From a virus, in IMG/VR virus record IMGVR_UViG_3300045988_052780: a stretch of 64,000 nucleotides of DNA; one strand, given 5' to 3'. The notes beneath the pieces were generated by a model. That model did no database searches. It worked only from the letters and a program-made list of their open reading frames with translations, and had not been told where the DNA came from. The translations under genes and the position numbers were made by a program. Of the stretch, positions 30,832 to 62,519 are shown piece after piece (position 1 is the stretch's first letter; every line of letters starts with the position of its first letter).

Positions 30832-31573
30832 TGGCGAGAAGGTGACTCGAACACCCAACCTTGCGATTATTTCTTTGGACGTGTGCTCTTAGCATTTAAT
30901 CGTCCGTAATTCTCAGTTAAGCTGTGACAATTTGGACACAGTAACTGTAGATTGTCTTCTGAGTTGTTGGTAGCATCACCATCTATGTGGTGAACATGAA
31001 GTGGAGGTTCTCCTGTAATCGGGTGAATCTTATCCCACCCACAAACTTGGCACTTACGTTCATGCTTATCCATGAGATAGTCCCTAATGTGTTTAGAAAT
31101 GGAACGAGTTCCACACATGCCAGTTTCTTCACCTTCCTTCCATCTTCTAATGTACTCTTTATGTTTGTACTCGGCTTGACATACGTTGTTACAGTACTTA
31201 GTAGTACTGTTATGATTGCTTAATTCTTTACCGCAATTTAAACAGACTCTAGTTACTAACTTCTTGCCCTTGTTAAAGGTTTCGTTAGCATTTATACTTC
31301 TTCGTTTAACTATGCTGATGTTAAGTCTCTTAGCAACCCTTCGTATGTTTGAGCCTGTACAGCCGTACATTCTACCAATCTCCTCATAAGACACTTTGTC
31401 TGTTAATATTAACCTTTCTAAGTTCTCTTTCTCTAAATTCCAGTCCATTTGTATAACTCTTAATTGAATTACAAATGTAATGATTTTAGATAAAGAAACC
31501 TAGGAATTCGATTCTTATTAAGAATTATTAACAGTATGAGTCGCACGCTCTAACCAGTTGAGCTATCTCGCCA
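30832..31573 (-). tRNA. tRNA-Met(CAT) split in the anticodon loop by a 667-nt intervening sequence carrying an HNH endonuclease gene (exon 1 31536..31573, exon 2 30832..30868)
   Basis: 5' half GGCGAGA TA GCTC AACTGGTTA GAGC G TGCGA CTCAT... and 3' half ...AA TCGCA AGGTT GGGTG TTCGAGT CACCT TCTCGCC A. Acceptor (7/7), anticodon stem (5/5) and T-stem pair perfectly once the halves are joined. Confidence 0.6.
30867..31448 (-). CDS. HNH homing endonuclease with N-terminal sigma-70 region-4-like HTH, inside the tRNA-Met intervening sequence
   Basis: HNH motifs CQVCGW...HVHHIDGD...NLQLLCPNCH. Paralog of 44439..45047. Its stop codon TAA abuts the exon-2 anticodon stem. Confidence 0.8.
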   Translation of the reverse strand: MDWNLEKENLERLILTDKVSYEEIGRMYGCTGSNIRRVAKRLNISIVKRRSINANETFNKGKKLVTRVCLNCGKELSNHNSTTKYCNNVCQAEYKHKEYIRRWKEGEETGMCGTRSISKHIRDYLMDKHERKCQVCGWDKIHPITGEPPLHVHHIDGDATNNSEDNLQLLCPNCHSLTENYGRLNAKSTRPKK

Positions 31574-37979: not shown

Positions 37980-38042
37980 AATTTCAGAAGACTTTGATAT
38001 AAAACTATACTGCTGTAGTCTTCTTATGCAAATCAAAGATTG

Positions 38043-38176: not shown

Positions 38177-38441
38177 AAGTGTATTGTCTCTTCCCGCCAG
38201 CTGAGGTATTCCCAATGTTATTGATAGGTGTCCATCTCTTCAAATAACTTGGTATGCTAATGAGACTGGGCATATTTTAACTTAATTAAGTCTACAGAGG
38301 GTGGGTGTTAGCCGTTTCTATCCCACCATTGCGTACTACAGTGCTAACTACCGTCTAAGCTTCCATCCCTTACGTCGCCTTAGAGTGTACATGATTATTA
38401 TTGCCTAATCAGTTACTTGATTGGAAGGATTATGTACAAGG

Positions 38442-40171: not shown

Positions 40172-40235
40172 AATTACAGAAGACCTTGCTGTATCATTAC
40201 TAATGCTGTTCGTCTTCTTAAGCTGTAAAAGATTG

Positions 40236-44354: not shown

Positions 44355-44379
44355 ACATTTTTAATTATTAGTTAATAAG

Positions 44380-45197
44380 TACCCCGACTGCGATTCGAAC
44401 GCAGATATGTGGCTTAGTATAAGAACTAGGAGTCGAACCTAATTCTTATTGTTATTAATTTCATTTTTATGGTAACGGTAATAGGAACGTTCTCCACACT
44501 TGTTCTTAGACTTATAAGTATCAAGCTGTGAATCACAGTTAGGACATATGCATCGTAAATTATCTCTACGATTGTTAGATGCATGTCCGTCTATATGGTC
44601 AATGATAAAGACCAGCTCTTTACCATTCCAGATAGGCTTCATACCACATATAGCACATACTCCACCTTGCTCTTTTAGAATATCTTTCTTGAAGGCCTTA
44701 GGAGAGTAGTTAGCTCTCATTATACTTTCATCACCGTCCAAAAGCTTCTTGTAAGCAAGCATATGAGCATGTTCAAATTGACATTTAGGACCACAGTACT
44801 TGCCATAACTTCCGTTATAACTAATAAGTTCTGCACCACAGTTTAAACAGTATTTGTACTTCCTATTGAATGTTTCTTTAGGATTAATTTTACGTTTAAT
44901 TGGTAACTCTATGCCAAGTCTACGCGCTACATTCTTAATATTAGCACCTGAACAACCATATCTTCTTCCTATTTCCTCATAACTGAGCTTATCTATCAAA
45001 ATTAAATGCTCAAGTTGAGCTTTCTCGTTAATCCATTTACTTGTCATATTCGTCTAAATTAGAAATTCGTACCTCAAAGATACGAATCTTTTACGAATTA
45101 AACAAGTAAATGGATGTTTTGTTGAAATTAATAACAGTGAGTTACGGACTCACCAGCCGTATGAAGGCCACTGTTCTATCCCTTGAACTATCGAGGC
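44380..45197 (-). tRNA. tRNA split in the anticodon loop by a ~746-nt intervening sequence carrying an HNH endonuclease gene. The anticodon is TCT (Arg) or TCA (UGA-reading) depending on the exact junction (exon 1 45162..45197, exon 2 44380..44415).
   Basis: 5' half GCCTCGA TA GTTC AAGGGATA GAAC A GTGGC CTTCA... and 3' half ...AA GCCAC ATAT CTGCG TTCGAAT CGCAG TCGGGGT A. The anticodon stem GTGGC/GCCAC is perfect and the acceptor pairs 7/7 with two G:U. Confidence 0.55.
44439..45047 (-). CDS. HNH homing endonuclease with N-terminal HTH, paralog of 30867..31448, inside a tRNA intervening sequence
   Basis: CAICGM...IDHIDGH...NLRCICPNCD HNH motifs. The N-terminal 60 aa are about 60% identical to the other HNH. 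Confidence 0.8.
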   Translation of the reverse strand: MTSKWINEKAQLEHLILIDKLSYEEIGRRYGCSGANIKNVARRLGIELPIKRKINPKETFNRKYKYCLNCGAELISYNGSYGKYCGPKCQFEHAHMLAYKKLLDGDESIMRANYSPKAFKKDILKEQGGVCAICGMKPIWNGKELVFIIDHIDGHASNNRRDNLRCICPNCDSQLDTYKSKNKCGERSYYRYHKNEINNNKN

Positions 45198-45265
45198 ATT
45201 AACAGAAGACATTGTAATCATATGTAACATGACACCTGCTGTATGTCTTCTTAGGCAATACTATT

Positions 45266-47099: not shown

Positions 47100-47357
47100 G
47101 ATTATCCATGCGGAATTATCATGCCCGTGGGAGTCATTACATAAGTCTTAGAGACTTGAATGAAATACCACTTAACTGCTTTCTTAATTAACTTAAATAG
47201 TTTCATAATAACTCAGTTTTAGTCAGTAAATTAATAATCTAAAGAAACCACTCTATCTTCACAGACCGAGTGGTCGAATACAATTATTTGTACTTCAAGT
47301 TGCTTAATTAAAACATTTCCAGTGACTCCAGAGGGACTTGAACCCTCGACCCACGGA

Positions 47358-47795
47358 TTAACAGAATATTTTAGATATTCTATCTTCAGAGATAACATAA
47401 TCTTTGGTGAAATTTATTCCTTTAACTTGTCCATTCTTGGATGTTTCAGTCCTAAGAGTAATTGTACGTCTATCAACCAACTCAGACATAGGGAATAAAT
47501 AAATTGTATCTAAATCACAACATATAACTACATCCACTTCATCAATGGTGTATTTATGAGTTTCTTTGTTACTCCAGTTATTTGTCACTAAACTAAAACA
47601 AAGAGAGTTATTCTCTGTCTTAGTATCAGTGGTTTTAACTTGACACTTAAAGAATTTGTTGTTGTGGAAGACAACGAAATCAAAAGGGAGATTGTCAGAC
47701 ATAGGTAATAATACATCAATACCATACTTAGCTAACTCTCCGATTGCTACACGCTCTCCCATTTCACCTAATTGTTTGTTATTTCTAACTTCCAT
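47358..47795 (-). CDS. YraN/I-Ssp6803I-like PD-(D/E)XK homing endonuclease
   Basis: GE.GERVAIGELAKYGIDVLLP...DFVVFHNNKFFKCQVKTT matches the UPF0102/I-Ssp6803I core. The start ATG is 1 nt after tRNA-Lys, and the last codons TGT TAA lie inside the CTGTTAA anticodon loop of the split tRNA. Confidence 0.6.
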   Translation of the reverse strand: MEVRNNKQLGEMGERVAIGELAKYGIDVLLPMSDNLPFDFVVFHNNKFFKCQVKTTDTKTENNSLCFSLVTNNWSNKETHKYTIDEVDVVICCDLDTIYLFPMSELVDRRTITLRTETSKNGQVKGINFTKDYVISEDRISKIFC

Positions 47796-47796
47796 G

Positions 47797-47868
47797 TCAC
47801 TCCGCAGGGACTTGAACCCTGTTCTATAGATTAAAAGTCTATAGCATATCCATACATGCTCCGGAGTG
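47797..47868 (-). tRNA. tRNA-Lys(TTT)
   Basis: Fully canonical: CACTCCG GA GCAT GTATGGAT ATGC T ATAGA CTTTTAA TCTAT AGAA CAGGG TTCAAGT CCCTG CGGAGTG A. Confidence 0.85.
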
Positions 47869-48179: not shown

Positions 48180-49040
48180 TCTGGGTAGTGTGGCTCGAAC
48201 ACACGACATCTAGGTCTAGGAACTAATGCTTTAGAGATTTATCCAATCATTAGAGTTAATAGATTTAATATCTGACGTTTTGGTTGGAAGGTTGTAGCTC
48301 TTACACCACTTTCTAACAGCGTTATCTGAGACTCCAAAGTCCTTTCCAATTTGAGTAAATGGTTTAAATCTAATTAATTCTTTTAGTTGCTCTCTTGTAG
48401 GTCTCTCGACCTTCTGTGCATTCTTAGTAGCACACTCTACACATATACCATTAGCCTTAGAGACTTTGTTAGTGTTACACTGAGAACAGATATAAACTTT
48501 AGGTAAAGGCTCAGATTCCTCTGAACTCCTAACAAAAGAATTAGATACTTTATGTCCTAGCATGTTCTCTAACAGGTAATCCTCTGCTTTGTTATAAGCA
48601 CCACTGTTGTTAGCAGGTGGTTTGAGTCTTAATGTCTTGTCAGTTGAACACTCACTTACTGGAACAAGGTAAACCTTGTTATCGTAACAGGTTGCAAAGT
48701 AATCTATCTGCTCATCATCGTATCTCCTACGAATTGTCTCTTTGGTGTTGGTAGTCTGTGTGACTGTACTAAAATGAAATGCATCTAAATCTCGTACACC
48801 ATTCCTAATAGGATTACTAGACGACTTGCACTGAACTTTAAGGAGTTCATCGCCAGTATCTACTATCATGTCATATCTGGCACAATCACCATAAGGAATT
48901 GAGCAATCAAATCCCATTGACATGAATCCCATAAGGCAGGTTAGTTCTGTAATGTTACCTTTAGATTTTGTATAATCCATATGTTATACTCTAAAGTTTA
49001 GTTCCCAAACCTAGCATTCTACCTACTGAATTATACCCAG
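48180..49040 (-). tRNA. tRNA-Pro(TGG) split at the 3' side of the anticodon loop by a ~790-nt intervening sequence carrying a YraN-like endonuclease gene (exon 1 ~49003..49040, exon 2 48180..48216)
   Basis: 5' half CTGGGTA TA ATTC AGTAGGTA GAAT G CTAGG TTTGGGA and 3' half (GA) CCTAG ATGTC GTGTG TTCGAGC CACAC TACCCAG A. All stems are perfect. The intervening sequence ends with CCTAGA, duplicating the start of exon 2. Confidence 0.6.
48231..48980 (-). CDS. YraN/I-Ssp6803I-like PD-(D/E)XK homing endonuclease with C-terminal zinc-ribbon and HTH DNA-binding extension
   Basis: The N-terminus ITELTCLMGFMSMGFDCSIP...DMIVDTGDELLKVQCKSS is paralogous to 47358..47795. C-terminal CSQCN...CVEC and a DFGVSDNAVRKW HTH. 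Confidence 0.6.
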   Translation of the reverse strand: MDYTKSKGNITELTCLMGFMSMGFDCSIPYGDCARYDMIVDTGDELLKVQCKSSSNPIRNGVRDLDAFHFSTVTQTTNTKETIRRRYDDEQIDYFATCYDNKVYLVPVSECSTDKTLRLKPPANNSGAYNKAEDYLLENMLGHKVSNSFVRSSEESEPLPKVYICSQCNTNKVSKANGICVECATKNAQKVERPTREQLKELIRFKPFTQIGKDFGVSDNAVRKWCKSYNLPTKTSDIKSINSNDWINL

Positions 49041-49110
49041 AGTGCGGAAGTCTAAATATGCTTGACATGGGTTATGCTGTAAGACTTCCTATCAATTCGA
49101 AATCAAGACG

Positions 49111-49184
49111 TGGGCAAGATAGGACTTGAACCTATGACCCCTACCTTATCAGAGTAGTGCTCTAACCAACTGAGCTACTTGCCC
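49111..49184 (-). tRNA. tRNA-Ile(GAT)
   Basis: GGGCAAG TA GCTC AGTTGGTTA GAGC A CTACT CTGATAA GGTAG, T-arm ATAGG TTCAAGT CCTAT. Confidence 0.85.
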
Positions 49185-49272
49185 ATCCACAGAAGACGCT
49201 ACCAATACTAATCATGTAAGAGGCGTGTGCTGTACGTCTTCTTAAATAAAATAATCATTTATGGATTATATG

Positions 49273-49289
49273 GTTGCGGAGATGGGAGT
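49273..49289. repeat. 17-bp direct repeat ttgcggagatgggagtt. It duplicates the 3' end of tRNA-Met (50000..50016) and flanks the GIY-YIG gene on its far side.
   Basis: 16/17 identity with 50000..50016. It is followed by the hairpin GATGGGA(N14)TCCCATC. Confidence 0.7.
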
Positions 49290-49936
49290 TATTGTGCATA
49301 TTCCCATCTATATCCGTATGCTGTCTTAGTCTTGTGCTTAGCTGCATTAGAGATATGGCTTCTAACACCTCCGTTATATGTCTTAGCATAACCGTTATCA
49401 ACACACCAATGTGCTGCATCAGCTACGCTATCAAACACTTGCACAAGCATATCTTCGTTGTACTGTTCTATCTTTACTGGAGGTTTACAGGAGCCACAAC
49501 GTGACTTGCTATTATTGTGAGACCTCTTAATGTCCTTCACTACTTTAGACACTGTGTCTGGATGACATCCTACTATTTTAGCAGTATCTTTCATCGAATG
49601 TCCAGCAGCGTAAAGCTCACGAATTTCATCATAGTTCCAAATAATAGAACCATCTCCACCGGTAGTGGCATTATAACCATTACCATAGGTTTTAAATTCA
49701 TTTATCCAGTAAGTTTCTCTTCCGCTAGATTCCTTTGACGAGCACTCTTCTAGCATTTCTATGCTAAATGAATCAATTCCATATTTATTCATGGCTCTAT
49801 ACAAAGGTCTATCTTTGCATCTCTCCTTCTTATAATCTCTACAGTGTTCTTTCCATCTCTTACTAACGGACGAAGTAGTTTTACCTATATACTTCTTTCC
49901 ATTTACATGGTTAGTTATGCAGTAAATATAAGACAT
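49289..49936 (-). CDS. GIY-YIG homing endonuclease (I-TevI/Seg-like) with C-terminal DNA-binding region
   Basis: N-terminal YIYCITNHVNGKKYIGKT...RWKEH is the GIY-YIG signature. The C-terminal half has NUMOD/HTH-like segments. Confidence 0.8.
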   Translation of the reverse strand: MSYIYCITNHVNGKKYIGKTTSSVSKRWKEHCRDYKKERCKDRPLYRAMNKYGIDSFSIEMLEECSSKESSGRETYWINEFKTYGNGYNATTGGDGSIIWNYDEIRELYAAGHSMKDTAKIVGCHPDTVSKVVKDIKRSHNNSKSRCGSCKPPVKIEQYNEDMLVQVFDSVADAAHWCVDNGYAKTYNGGVRSHISNAAKHKTKTAYGYRWEYAQ

Positions 49937-49999
49937 TAAGCTTTAGTCGAATTAGCGTTACCCGAATCTCACCACGTGGAGGTTTCGACTATGAGATTC

Positions 50000-50078
50000 T
50001 TGCGGAGATGGGAGTCGAACCCAATATAACTAGCTTATGAGACTAGTATGATTTATATATCCGTTTCATTCCTCCGCA
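50000..50078 (-). tRNA. tRNA-Met/Ile2(CAT) with enlarged D-loop
   Basis: Acceptor TGCGGAG/CTCCGCA, anticodon stem CTAGT/GCTAG with loop CTCATAA, T-arm TTGGG TTCGACT CCCAT. The D region is 6 nt longer than standard. Confidence 0.5.
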
Positions 50079-50081
50079 AAG

Positions 50082-50153
50082 TGCTCCATACAGGATTCAA
50101 ACCTGTGACACGTAGGTTTAGGGTCTACTGTTCTATCGCTGAACTAATGGAGC
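50082..50153 (-). tRNA. tRNA with CUA anticodon (candidate amber-suppressor / TAG-decoding tRNA); loop is atypical (C33)
   Basis: Perfect acceptor GCTCCAT/ATGGAGC, D-arm GTTC AGCGATA GAAC, anticodon stem GTAG(A)/(C)CTAC with loop CCCTAAA, T-arm ACAGG TTTGAAT CCTGT. Confidence 0.5.
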
Positions 50154-52130: not shown

Positions 52131-52200
52131 TCAGCTAGGTGGGATTCGAACCCACACCACTTACATAATTTGTAAGTCTTCTAACTTAAATTACTAGCCT
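52131..52200 (-). ncRNA. tRNA-like element (canonical T-arm GTGGG TTCGAAT CCCAC plus 6-bp acceptor) with a non-cloverleaf body; candidate Y-RNA-like tRNA mimic or degenerate tRNA
   Basis: Minus strand is AGGCTAG TAATTTAAGTTAGAAGACTTACAAATTATGTAAGTGGTGT GGG-TTCGAAT-CCCAC CTAGCTG A. The body forms a 7-bp hairpin ACTTACA/TGTAAGT with a 5-nt loop instead of D and anticodon arms. It lies about 105 nt downstream of the vWA/Ro-like gene on the same strand. Confidence 0.4.
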
Positions 52201-52308: not shown

Positions 52309-54027
52309 CTAGCCTTGTTGAGTGGACACAGTGCGCTTATTATAAATTGGCTTCTCAGCCTTTGCAGGCTTACTCTGCACGCTTGCATTCTTTCTCGGTG
52401 TGTCCTTCTCTAACACCATCATATTCAAGAGTTCTTGATTCATCATGTAATCGAACAACTCTTTAGGCGTACTAGGATTCTGGAATCTCTTCTCTCCGGT
52501 TATAAATCCAGCAGTGGACTGACTTAATCCGTTAACAAAGAAACAGTTAGAAACATTGCGAATCAATTCAACTTTAGGCTTAGTCTGTTTAGAGGCTAAA
52601 TGCCAAATAATTAATTTAAACTGTTTAACAAACTCTTTGCTAAATCCAGCTTTTAAGAGTTTAGATTTAAATTCAATGAATTGTTCACTGGTGTTTCTTA
52701 AATGTCCCAATGCTCCGCTAATTACCAAACAGCCATTTGGAAATTCACCTTCCCGAATTCCTCCAGATTTAATAGATATAAGCATATCTGCAATCATAGA
52801 CAGAGTTGGACTAGTTACTAAGGCTTCCTCAGTATCTGAAATCCACTTACTAGTAGGAGTTGTACCTTCCCACTTACGTAAATCACATCTATTGTTGGCA
52901 AATACACCATACATGCCAGAGAACGCTACAGGCATTAATTCGGAATGATACATAGCATAAGCCTTACCAACACTATAAGCAGAAGTTTCAGTAGCTTCTA
53001 TCTCAGAATAAGCAGAATTACTAATGTCTCTAATTACTAATAGTGGTGATACTTTCTTTAGCTTAGCATTCTTCACGAATGTATTAAAACTAACATCTAT
53101 AGAAGAACCCATGAATTCTGGTACGAACTCTGCAATTTTATCAAGTCCAAATGGCTTAAATAAATTATGCACAAATCCGTCATTACAGGGCTTTCTACGA
53201 GTCTTCAGCCATTTCTGATACTTCTCTGCAAGACCTTGTTGTTTGAGGAATTTAGAGCCTACTAGCAGTGCTAGAGCCTTTCCTGGAACTGTATCAAAGT
53301 CAATGTCGAGTAATTTCTTATGGCTTATTAATTGCTGCCATTTCATAACTGTACCGCTGTTCTTCATCTTTCTATACTTACGATAAGATGAATAGTCTCC
53401 TTCCTCTTTCGGTTTACCATAAAGGCCTTCAGCTAGATATTTAGCAACTATGTTACGGGCTTTCGCCTCGTCTGTCTTACATATAGTATTAGCTCGAACT
53501 CTAGGAAGATACTTCTTTACTAAGTCACATGTTTGCCCTTCTACTAAACCAGCATAAATAGTCTTTCTAAAGAAATCCCAATCTAGTCTATGCTTGTATC
53601 CATGTAATTGAGCATCCATTACTAACATATTAATAAAGTCCTTCCAGCATCCTGCTGCCGCAAAGTAAGGCATATTGGCATGGAATGTAGATTTATGATA
53701 TGTTGCCAACCACATCATTCTTAATAAACCTTCATTCTTTAGACCACCTCCTCGCTGTGTGTCTAAGTAAATAACTCCATTAGGAGTAACTACTCTACAT
53801 TTACGTGTAATAAGTCTTACACAGGCAGTAAATTTGACACACAGCTTTGGATTGGCCTTCCACAGTTCATACATATCTTGACTAACGTCTTCATAAGAAC
53901 GTGGTTCAAGATAGTGCGCAAGGTTTACGAATTGGTCCACAAATACTTTAGTAGGATTTGTATACCTTCGTCCCCCACCTTGAGAGGGCTTAGAGCAAGC
54001 CTTTTTAGGCCTTTCATTCATTTCCAT
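52309..54027 (-). CDS. large vWA-domain protein. Tentatively Ro60/TROVE-like (Rsr), but not verified and could be another vWA-containing RNA or DNA processing protein.
   Basis: 572 aa with a MIDAS DxSxS motif (VIRDISNSAYS) about two-thirds along, as in Ro60 domain order (TROVE then vWA). A tRNA-like RNA lies immediately downstream. Confidence 0.35.
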   Translation of the reverse strand: MEMNERPKKACSKPSQGGGRRYTNPTKVFVDQFVNLAHYLEPRSYEDVSQDMYELWKANPKLCVKFTACVRLITRKCRVVTPNGVIYLDTQRGGGLKNEGLLRMMWLATYHKSTFHANMPYFAAAGCWKDFINMLVMDAQLHGYKHRLDWDFFRKTIYAGLVEGQTCDLVKKYLPRVRANTICKTDEAKARNIVAKYLAEGLYGKPKEEGDYSSYRKYRKMKNSGTVMKWQQLISHKKLLDIDFDTVPGKALALLVGSKFLKQQGLAEKYQKWLKTRRKPCNDGFVHNLFKPFGLDKIAEFVPEFMGSSIDVSFNTFVKNAKLKKVSPLLVIRDISNSAYSEIEATETSAYSVGKAYAMYHSELMPVAFSGMYGVFANNRCDLRKWEGTTPTSKWISDTEEALVTSPTLSMIADMLISIKSGGIREGEFPNGCLVISGALGHLRNTSEQFIEFKSKLLKAGFSKEFVKQFKLIIWHLASKQTKPKVELIRNVSNCFFVNGLSQSTAGFITGEKRFQNPSTPKELFDYMMNQELLNMMVLEKDTPRKNASVQSKPAKAEKPIYNKRTVSTQQG

Positions 54028-54388
54028 CTTGTAAAATTAAATTGGCAGGTTAATCTGAGAGTTCTTTATTCTAATTGATAAAATGGGACACATAGACATC
54101 GAGCCAGCTTAATACAACTCGCTACTTACACACTACATGCCCCATATCAAATGAGGAAAGAGGTTCACTTGATGACCTATCTACGTGCTGATTATAACGT
54201 AGACCGTGCAGATTCTCTCTTACACAATACTATGATGGACTCAAACCATCTCCACCCCTAGGTGAACTTTCCGTTATTCGAATAGTACAGGTTTCAACTC
54301 TTTATAACGCCTTTAAGTCAAAGTATACTCCGGAATATACTCTTAGTTCATCAGACCAAGTTTGCGCTTAGAATTATCTAAGATTAAG

Positions 54389-62439: not shown

Positions 62440-62519
62440 TTATTAATCAGACTCCTGCATATAGCAGAAGTTTCGTCCAGTCTCATCAGTGATTATTTTA
62501 TAGACTCCTGGTTGTCTTA

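Follow-up and report, generated by a model that had tools for sequence, protein, structure and literature searches.

Theta ribozymes are minimal ribozymes of the hepatitis delta virus (HDV)-like type which were described in 2024 beside the transfer RNA (tRNA) genes of gut phages (Kienbeck et al. 2024, PMC10879173). In that paper they are treated as tRNA-maturation elements tied to recoding, and the words endonuclease, homing and GIY-YIG are absent from its main text. Another system acting at phage tRNA genes is the endonuclease SegB, which recognizes a 27-bp site inside tRNA genes around the motif GGTTCRANTCC and cuts at several points toward their 3′ end (PMC2330249, PMC13096335). In the DNA analyzed here, a stretch of 64,000 nucleotides (nt) from the IMG/VR virus record IMGVR_UViG_3300045988_052780 (referred to as the window), both kinds of component stand side by side. 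A predicted theta ribozyme and a GIY-YIG homing endonuclease gene directly follow a tRNA gene with the anticodon CAT, and behind the endonuclease gene the 3′ end of this tRNA occurs a second time. Neither theta ribozymes nor tRNA-associated GIY-YIG endonucleases are new in themselves, while their combination is apparently undescribed as far as we found; a published link between theta ribozymes and homing endonucleases was not detected in open-access full texts, so this absence is no proof. It is probable that positions 49999-49274 constitute a selfish homing cassette of about 0.73 kilobases (kb), made up of ribozyme and endonuclease gene, which resides at the 3′ end of tRNA-CAT and leaves the tRNA functional, and that the second copy is the displaced 3′ end.

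All genes of the locus are located on the minus strand. In this direction the order is tRNA(CTA), tRNA-CAT, a gap of 63 nt, an open reading frame (ORF) of 215 amino acids (aa), copy 2 of the tRNA end, a spacer of 89 nt and tRNA-Ile(GAT). The features of the locus are:

50081..50153, minus strand: amber-suppressor tRNA with anticodon CTA, 2 nt upstream of tRNA-CAT (ARAGORN; Rfam tRNA, 56.8 bits)
50000..50078, minus strand: tRNA-CAT (Met or Ile2), the invaded gene, with A50000 as discriminator (partial Rfam match of 20.8 bits, cloverleaf alignment)
50000..50015, minus strand: copy 1, the functional 3′ end of tRNA-CAT (end of the T-loop, 3′ strand of the T-stem, 3′ strand of the acceptor stem, discriminator)
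49944..49999, minus strand: theta-type minimal HDV-like ribozyme of 56 nt, predicted to be self-cleaving (Rfam RF02682, compensatory changes, covariation)
49289..49936, minus strand: GIY-YIG homing endonuclease gene, 215 aa, TAA stop codon at 49291-49289 (ORF, Pfam, PHROG)
49274..49289, minus strand: copy 2, a duplicated, non-functional stretch (tRNA positions ~58-73) that is fused to the stop codon
49185..49273, minus strand: backbone spacer of type A (starting with ccatataatcc), 89 nt, holding a hairpin AAGAAGAC...GTCTTCT at 49243-49191
49110..49184, minus strand: tRNA-Ile(GAT), the next gene of the array and right limit of the locus (ARAGORN, Rfam)

The earlier note on this DNA, made from the sequence alone, had reported a 17-bp duplication of the tRNA-Met 3′ end on both sides of a GIY-YIG endonuclease gene and had interpreted it as the footprint of an endonuclease-mediated insertion at the tRNA 3′ end. 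The duplication is real. The 17-mer TTGCGGAGATGGGAGTY has exactly two occurrences in the window (49274-49290 and 50000-50016); shuffling yields 0.02 expected matches, and two copies were obtained in 0 of 100 shuffles. The first copy had been placed one position too early, at 49273, and the exact identity comprises 16 nt (minus-strand ACTCCCATCTCCGCAA, 49289->49274 and 50015->50000), the 17th base being different. The copy at 50000 onward belongs to the CAT-anticodon tRNA at 50078->50000. Copy 2 shares its first base with the TAA codon of the 215-aa ORF, of which it is the last base, and the spacer 3′ of copy 2 is the one found immediately behind the tRNA in the empty allele L009, with 98% identity. 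The invaded tRNA has an expanded D-loop of 14 nt (an expansion of 9 nt) which explains its low Rfam score; it was not called by ARAGORN, its acceptor and anticodon stems fold, and as more than 40 related contigs have it in identical form, the gene is to be regarded as conserved. T-arm sequences are shared in tRNA arrays, and 11-nt matches between different tRNAs of the window are common, so that a chance match or a stray tRNA pseudogene fragment unrelated to mobility might be considered in a tRNA-rich region. However, the shuffling value given above, the extension of the match over the tRNA-specific acceptor strand instead of the shared T-loop and the strict co-occurrence with the endonuclease gene leave this explanation with hardly any probability; moreover, the copies found elsewhere match the tRNA immediately upstream of the respective cassette.

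Megablast of the locus against GenBank phages gave no match, and relatives were therefore drawn from IMG/VR and metagenomes; protein-level matches in GenBank are unannotated human-faecal contigs. Scans of IMG/VR and metagenome contigs with the 3′ 23-mer of the tRNA resulted in 44 loci, and 34 distinct contigs contained the tRNA with a downstream region that could be classified. According to the spacer following the tRNA, three backbones were distinguished, A (ccatataatcc), B (ctacaatattctg) and C (ctacaatcattg). Fifteen contigs (12 of backbone C, two of B and one of A) revealed an empty site, in which the tRNA is followed by the spacer and neither ribozyme nor endonuclease gene is present. The filled site, consisting of tRNA, ribozyme, GIY-YIG gene, copy 2 and the spacer of the contig's own backbone, was found in 11 contigs plus the window. 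Four contigs (L007, L014, L052, L067) possess the ribozyme alone, and in three others the tRNA-CAT site is occupied by another ribozyme variant and an HNH_3-like ORF without a duplication; an arrangement of ribozyme plus HNH gene also exists elsewhere (L081, Pfam HNH_3, E=6e-11). Copy 2 occurs in all filled contigs and in no other contig of the 34, which shows that at the tRNA-CAT site a second tRNA-end copy of 15-16 nt always accompanies the ribozyme and the endonuclease gene. The filled contig L016 and the empty contigs L048 and L066 share 1212 nt of upstream and 700 nt of downstream sequence at 100.0% identity, and their sole difference is a block of 713 nt containing ribozyme, endonuclease gene and copy 2. 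The proposed insertion footprint is thus supported: comparison with relatives lacking the gene, as recommended in the earlier note, uncovered empty sites in three backbones and one filled/empty pair with fully identical flanks, and copy 2 is found in every contig bearing the endonuclease gene and in none without it. The note had also named a repeat in relatives without insertion polymorphism as an observation speaking against insertion; the opposite was encountered, and a recombinant contig additionally shows a one-sided conversion tract, as homing would leave. What has to be revised is the inserted unit, which is ribozyme plus endonuclease gene and not the gene alone.

The recombinant contig, L051, belongs to backbone C. 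Its flanks are 97-98% identical to empty C contigs and only 82% and 80% identical to backbone A, and its block shows 99.0% identity to the counterpart in L013 and L062, which are A-type contigs. A sliding comparison revealed C-type sequence until ~0.5-0.6 kb upstream of the tRNA 3′ end, followed by A-type sequence (100%) through the suppressor tRNA, tRNA-CAT, the ribozyme and the endonuclease gene. The return to C-type takes place exactly inside copy 2, where CTCCCGCGCTCCGCAA is present in place of CTCCCATCTCCGCAA, with an AT->GCG scar. The donor-type tract, with which the suppressor tRNA(CTA) was co-converted, thus comprises ~0.5 kb upstream of the insert and nothing downstream. Such a pattern, in which a long tract at one end contrasts with a tight and slightly imprecise junction at the other, would be expected for double-strand-break repair with one-sided homology, the break presumably being made by the encoded enzyme itself. 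Together, the contigs show that ribozyme and endonuclease gene have jointly been acquired and lost and have passed together from one phage backbone to another.

Integrative elements targeting tRNA 3′ ends leave direct repeats of the same kind as copy 1 and copy 2, and the insert is formally flanked by a direct repeat of 15-16 bp. The repeat might hence be a target-site duplication or an att-type repeat caused by a transposase or integrase, or go back to a staggered cut of 15 nt. We regard this as very unlikely. The insert codes only for the ribozyme and the GIY-YIG protein, and an origin by integrase or transposase was rejected because no such gene was found in the insert. In addition, characterized GIY-YIG enzymes leave 2-nt 3′ overhangs (SegB, PMC2330249), the one-sided co-conversion of ~0.5 kb in L051 is typical of break repair and not of cut-and-paste, and the length and integrity of the repeat vary among contexts.

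The ribozyme had not been seen in the earlier note. An HDV-like Rfam match exactly fills the gap between tRNA and ORF. It starts one base after the discriminator of tRNA-CAT and ends 7 nt before the GIY-YIG start codon. The match to RF02682 (49999-49936), a model derived from the P4-bearing F. prausnitzii ribozyme, reaches 38 bits (gathering score 44) with E=5e-4 in 17 kb and 2.9e-5 in 1 kb. The helices P1, P2 and P3, together with P1.1, make up a nested double pseudoknot in canonical order:

49999-49993 with 49970-49964, minus strand: P1, 7 of 7 pairs (GAATCTC / GAGATTC)
49991-49984 with 49951-49944, minus strand: P2, 8 bp (TAGTCGAA / TTCGACTA)
49983-49981 with 49973-49971, minus strand: P3, 3 bp (ACC / GGT)
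49980-49974, minus strand: L3 (TCCACGT)
49963-49962, minus strand: P1.1, GG after P1, facing CC in L3
Around 49955, minus strand: J4/2 (GCTAAT) with the putative catalytic C at 49955; P4 is absent

The putative catalytic C is an invariant column in an alignment of 19 ribozymes. G1 (49999) directly follows the discriminator A50000, in agreement with the ±1 nt distance from the tRNA 3′ end used as a criterion in PMC10879173, and cleavage is predicted to occur between A50000 and G49999. All three helices are kept by compensatory changes in homologues which were reached via the tRNA or the protein and not via the ribozyme. In L006, P2 is TGTTGAA/TTCAACA and P3 is GCC/GGC; in L005, P1 is GGTCACA/TGTGACT and P2 is GATAGAA/TTCTATC; further helix variants occur in L018, L021 and L028. 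In the MAFFT alignment of the 19 ribozymes the 5′ strands are out of register. It was not used for pair counts or a model, and an anchor-based permutation test was performed instead on 89 unique instances, selected by a pattern that leaves the 5′ strand of P1 and both strands of P2 free. P1 is perfect (7/7) in 93% of these instances, with a mean of 6.89 pairs compared to 5.1 with permuted partners, while P2 at fixed anchors has 4.36 pairs compared to 2.81. These structural data suggest that the ribozyme is active. A group I intron with an endonuclease ORF was rejected, as neither the cassette nor the HNH insertions described below gave a group I match in Rfam and the cassette starts only behind the discriminator and is not part of the mature tRNA.

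To what extent the arrangement recurs can be seen at other tRNA genes. Homologues retrieved with the protein (33-44% identity) are also located directly after tRNAs, in L018 (tRNA-Gln), L021 (tRNA-Cys) and L028 (tRNA-Gln) with a theta ribozyme in between, and members of the family were found after tRNA-Gln, Cys, Lys, Sup, Leu, Met and Pro. A ribozyme-based sample was obtained with the pattern ACCTCCACGTGG..GG..CTAA. Among the matches listed, at least 101 pass the P1/P2 check, and for 88 of these 101 ribozymes the downstream sequence is 700 nt or longer; in 22 of these 88 a GIY-YIG ORF of the window family (phmmer, E 1e-27 to 1e-76) comes next at a distance of 5-76 nt, and in three further ones an HNH_3 ORF. 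The upstream tRNAs in this sample are Leu(TAG), Leu(TAA), several different Met(CAT), Gln and Pro. At four further tRNA contexts, a copy of the cognate tRNA 3′ end (12-16 nt) abuts the stop codon:

L131/L163, tRNA-Met: copy AATCCTACCTCCGCAA, 16 nt, overlapping the TAA
L146, tRNA-Met: copy ATTCCCACTACCGCAA, 16 nt
L096/L132/L169/L174, tRNA-Leu(TAA): copy CCACTTCGGGTA, 12 nt
L074, tRNA left untyped by ARAGORN: copy CCGTTAGGTCCA, 12 nt (16 with one indel)

This shows that the second copy is specific to the invaded tRNA. In the window and in all but one of the four further contexts, it starts near T-loop position 58 (in L074 if a 1-nt deletion is accepted); the exception is tRNA-Leu(TAA) (L096), for which the exact match sets in at about position 62 in the T-stem. 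L172 and L164 have decayed copies with internal deletions. Allele scans gave 36 empty and four filled alleles for tRNA-Met and 36 empty and eight filled alleles for tRNA-Leu(TAA). The ribozyme is present in 0/72 empty and 12/12 filled alleles of these two genes, and in the filled alleles the spacer after copy 2 is the spacer after the tRNA in empty ones. At a tRNA-Met gene other than that of the window, L163 and L170/L076 have flanks that are 100.0% and 99.8% identical around an insert of 734 nt. The scan with the tRNA end of the L146 type returned the filled locus alone, and no empty site could be defined there. A downstream duplication as a universal feature of the family was rejected, since it is absent from the distant homologues L018, L021, L022, L025 and L028. 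In L078, L095, L105 and L086, tRNA-Sup(CTA) and a theta ribozyme are followed by a conserved ORF of 93-103 aa (MIAAIYELNGKILKTTNL...) which has no Pfam match.

According to the published view, the ribozyme would be a resident tRNA-maturation element of the phage, and a free-standing endonuclease gene would have landed downstream of it without forming a unit. The identical ribozyme without endonuclease gene in L007, L014, L052 and L067 fits this view, as do the ~70% of theta ribozymes that, among the matches listed, have no recognizable endonuclease gene next to them and some family members that follow tRNAs without a ribozyme (L020, L022/23). On the other hand, the ribozyme is missing from 15 of 15 empty alleles at tRNA-CAT and from the 72 at the two other tRNA genes, but from no filled allele. 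In isogenic pairs it is ribozyme and gene jointly that make the difference, the transfer into L051 took both, and at tRNA-CAT itself another ribozyme variant is paired with an endonuclease gene of another (HNH) type. A resident ribozyme is therefore improbable at this locus. The state of the alleles points in the same direction as the preferred reading of a joint cassette: six A-type alleles have endonuclease genes with internal deletions of 11-321 nt or frameshifts, while the ribozyme shows 0 differences over 56 nt in 14 of 14 alleles compared, including the four ribozyme-only alleles, and the rest of the block differs by ~3%. In the ribozyme-only alleles, reading the sequence past the ribozyme revealed no obvious remnant of an endonuclease gene. 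The decay pattern fits the life cycle of a homing endonuclease combined with ribozyme retention by tRNA dependence, which is suggestive since the alleles are not independent.

The identification of the gene between the copies as a GIY-YIG endonuclease gene is borne out by a Pfam match to PF01541 (48.2 bits, E=1.4e-12) and by a helix-turn-helix (HTH) region. The translation contains recognizable YIY...YIG, R, E and N motifs, and HTH_38, HTH_28 and HTH_23 match residues 102-135 slightly under the Pfam cut-offs. In the protein, a GIY-YIG domain at the N-terminus is thus followed by an HTH in the center and a GYxWxY motif at the C-terminus, the latter belonging to a K(R)KTAYGYxWxY motif common to the family members. 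It matches a PHROG homing endonuclease (3e-30) and is 35% identical to T4 SegB (E=1e-9), but only the catalytic domain of 96 aa can be aligned and the C-terminal halves are unrelated. Nuclease activity is likely from these similarities. The family ORFs in L018, L021, L022, L025 and L028 contain one to five in-frame TAG codons; because of these codons, many of these phages probably read TAG as sense. Endonucleases encoded in this way would be made only after suppressor activation.

The cassette probably spreads as follows. Transcription of the tRNA array would run through the tRNA into the cassette, and the ribozyme would cut after the discriminator (A50000|G49999). This cut would free a tRNA needing only end-healing and CCA addition and would at the same time create the 5′ end of the endonuclease messenger RNA (mRNA), starting with a compact 5′-OH ribozyme fold. 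As the ribozyme would free the tRNA, the insertion would not inactivate it and would cost the phage no tRNA. By analogy to SegB, the endonuclease would cut cassette-free alleles of the same tRNA gene in the region from the T-arm to the 3′ end. Repair from a cassette-bearing genome would then copy the donor tRNA, the ribozyme and the gene, with long co-conversion upstream, and the downstream join would be made at or near the broken end, so that the recipient's own segment from the T-loop to the discriminator would survive behind the stop codon as copy 2. The start of copy 2 (~58, or ~62 in one context) may be taken as an indirect hint at T-arm recognition by the enzyme. Neither copy alone would rebuild a site spanning T-arm, 3′ end and spacer, which would account for self-immunity. 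After fixation, the endonuclease gene would decay and the ribozyme would be retained because the tRNA 3′ end would then depend on it. Copy 2, presumably having no RNA function, would decay as well; while intact, it may offer the cassette a short stretch of downstream homology that lies within the conserved tRNA.

A second example of an endonuclease gene bracketed by tRNA sequence exists in the window:

47323..47868, minus strand: tRNA-Lys(TTT) locus with the bracketed endonuclease gene
47868-47797, minus strand: tRNA-Lys(TTT), directly followed by the ORF
47795-47358, minus strand: PD-(D/E)XK ORF (PDDEXK_5, I-Ssp6803I-like), 145 aa (Pfam)
47347-47323, minus strand: relic T-arm and acceptor 3′ strand from a different tRNA-Lys allele

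The T-stem of the relic is GAGGG/CCCTC, compared to CAGGG/CCCTG in the intact tRNA, and the acceptor strand also differs in a self-consistent manner. There is no ribozyme at this locus. Judged from its sequence, the relic looks as would be expected from a partly replaced resident allele and supports the step of the model in which a 3′ end is displaced.

Instead of a displaced remnant, copy 2 could be an element selected for a function, either as a hairpin at the 3′ end of the mRNA, as a binding or decoy site of the endonuclease or as a downstream homology arm. In the window it forms 8 bp with AGATGGGA, which belongs to the last codons of the ORF (-14.2 kcal/mol), two substitutions of copy 2 in the diverged L006 lineage preserve this pairing, and the backbone switch of L051 lies exactly in copy 2, as microhomology would predict. 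However, the hairpin is absent in the contexts of L131 and L146 and was thus rejected as a general function. Substitutions or indels in L006, L051, L074, L172 and L164 and the lack of copy 2 in many cassettes argue against strong constraint. A selected function is possible but on the whole unlikely. As to the homology arm in particular, copy 2 may act in this way: the L051 junction speaks in favor, decay in several lineages against strong selection.

Several points weigh against the interpretation as a homing cassette with a displaced tRNA end. The score of the ribozyme (38 bits) is below the Rfam gathering threshold of 44 bits. Cassettes of the family without a second copy exist (the L076 type, L125, L149, L158, L185, L018, L021, L028), and the duplication is therefore not obligatory. 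The isogenic filled and empty pairs are equally compatible with precise loss via the direct repeats. The four ribozyme-only contigs, which possess neither endonuclease gene nor copy 2, could hold a resident ribozyme and not a relic. As an intact tRNA persists in genomes containing the cassette, self-immunity would require that recognition reaches into the spacer. Finally, the model accounts neither for the right edge, a stop codon fused to about position 58 in independent contexts, nor for the way in which copy 1 gains a matching 3′ strand on the colonization of another tRNA species.

A similar duplication of the tRNA-Glu(TTC) 3′ end had been mentioned in the earlier note as a parallel. The repeat TTGGGAATACC(T) indeed exists at 38215->38204 and 38451->38440, but no insertion polymorphism is linked to it. 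It is present in six of six relatives covering the site, under either of two spacer alleles, and in these six relatives no endonuclease gene or ribozyme was found between the copies. A tblastn search for endonuclease relics in the Glu-Asp spacer gave no match. As the repeat is constant across the spacer alleles and lacks endonuclease gene and ribozyme, its interpretation as a parallel footprint was rejected; it is an old scar at most. Right after tRNA-Glu(TTC) (38216-38439, minus strand) there is an additional element of ~150 nt, non-coding and containing a GGTGGG...CCCACC hairpin, which is present in the window, L261 and L069, is not present in L007, L260 and L262, and matches no Rfam family at E<=1. 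The 12-nt repeat lies downstream of the position of this element in all alleles.

Apart from the cassette, tRNA-CAT carries another insertion in L013 (3351-4099), L009 and L062. There, 749 bp are inserted after the anticodon (between window positions 50036 and 50038), containing an HNH_2 ORF of 229 aa that reaches the very end of the insert; no group I match was obtained. The gene is therefore targeted by two unrelated endonuclease elements. The N-terminus of the 229-aa protein is 63% identical to that of an ORF inside tRNA-Arg(TCT) of the window (44379-45197, minus strand; ARAGORN, introns allowed), which is split in the anticodon (35/36) by an insert of 746 nt with this HNH-type ORF. The insert ends in a minihelix resembling a T-arm and acceptor (ATAAGAAT-TAGGTTCGACTCCTA-GTTCTTAT) and gave no Rfam group I signal; in the relative L007, the tRNA-Arg gene is uninterrupted and has a different anticodon stem. 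Either an undescribed tRNA intron or a disrupted gene is present here. A further insertion polymorphism of the array concerns a PDDEXK_5 endonuclease-like ORF of 249 aa between tRNA-Ile and tRNA-Cys (48231-48980, minus strand), present in L008 and absent from L007, L009, L012, L013 and L014. An HNH_2-like ORF at 30924-31493 (minus strand) is 30% identical to the HNH protein of L013 (tblastn, E=2e-18).

Other RNAs of the window include a tRNA at 52131-52200 (minus strand; Rfam, 40.6 bits) that was not called by ARAGORN. The suppressor tRNA(CTA) adjoins tRNA-CAT, and no ribozyme follows the suppressor. The hairpin AAGAAGAC-N-ACAGCA...GTCTTCT occurs four times on the minus strand (37986-38025, 40178-40219, 45204-45252 and 49191-49243; 0.01 copies expected), each time 6-7 nt upstream of a tRNA (Thr(TGT), Ser(GCT), Arg(TCT) and Ile(GAT)). 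It is found in relatives too and could be a processing or promoter element of the tRNA array. Two RNAs exceed the Rfam gathering score. One is RAGATH-34 at 54284-54381 (minus strand, 86.9 bits), beside an ORF of 572 aa (52309-54027) with a match to a phage 'RNA-binding protein' family; the other is a RAGATH-1 hammerhead ribozyme at 62445-62518 (minus strand, 82.6 bits).

The data provide an evolutionary and mechanistic context for a recently found ribozyme class with a debated role. Among the matches listed, at least a quarter of the theta ribozymes belong to endonuclease cassettes. Beside splicing and intergenic residence, there would be a third way for an endonuclease gene to live in a conserved gene, namely to re-supply the short downstream part and to cut the transcript. 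Partial tRNA copies in phage tRNA arrays can be explained as scars and may mark the cut site of the enzyme. In practical terms, cassettes of 0.7 kb join compact ribozymes with putative nucleases targeting tRNA genes, and for annotation it should be considered that default tools miss the ribozyme and interrupted or odd tRNAs. One might go further and regard theta-ribozyme/endonuclease cassettes as a distinct class of mobile elements, comparable to a non-splicing mobile group I intron in the T-loop of a tRNA, with copy 2 as a portable homology arm and with many orphan tRNA-linked theta ribozymes as relics of decayed cassettes; this generalization is tentative, and we hold it with some doubt. If it is true, both homology arms lie inside a conserved tRNA, allowing hops between diverged phages and between tRNA genes, and the main role of the theta ribozyme is damage control by a selfish element and not the regulation of recoding.

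Compared to the known systems, the ribozyme of the window shares with the theta ribozymes of PMC10879173 the P1/P1.1/P2/P3 fold, a minimal or absent P4, the C in J4/2 and a predicted cleavage site directly after the tRNA 3′ end. The setting is also the same (gut Caudoviricetes, an amber-suppressor tRNA, no encoded CCA). What separates it from them is its place in an insertion that it shares with an endonuclease gene, the two being jointly present or absent. With SegB of T4 and T6, the locus has in common a GIY-YIG gene between tRNA genes and the co-conversion of markers. SegB targets tRNA genes via a T-arm motif, and by likeness a similar target region is predicted for the protein of the window. 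By contrast, the segB locus of T4 has no ribozyme and no duplicated tRNA end, and the C-terminal DNA-binding parts of the proteins are unrelated, so that homology does not extend over the full length.

R2 retrotransposons possess a 5′ HDV-like ribozyme that frees the element from the rRNA co-transcript. Like the cassette, they are mobile elements residing in a structural RNA gene and co-transcribed with it, in which an HDV-like ribozyme at the junction parts the host RNA from the mRNA of the element. R2 is, however, a eukaryotic retroelement relying on target-primed reverse transcription, whereas the cassette would home at the DNA level in a phage. HDV-like ribozymes of R2 are mentioned in PMC11331408. 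In group I introns with homing endonuclease genes, twin-ribozyme introns and IStrons (PMC3984707, PMC4227781), a ribozyme likewise renders the insertion harmless, and twin-ribozyme introns contain a second one, by which the 5′ end of the endonuclease mRNA is shaped. The cassette differs from them since no splicing is involved: the downstream 'exon' of 15 nt of tRNA is re-supplied upstream and the element is cut off.

For homing in T4, PMC2988022, which also summarizes work from 1999, documents one-sided homologous repair with microhomology junctions. The points in common are homology on one side, a microhomology junction on the other and a route to new sites; the substrates of the 1999 work were engineered, whereas the architecture described here is natural and recurrent. 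Integrative elements of tRNA 3′ ends resemble the cassette in the duplicated tRNA 3′ end, with the gene intact on one side and a partial copy on the other side. In contrast to them, the cassette is an insert of 0.7 kb without an integrase, and the evidence points toward break repair.

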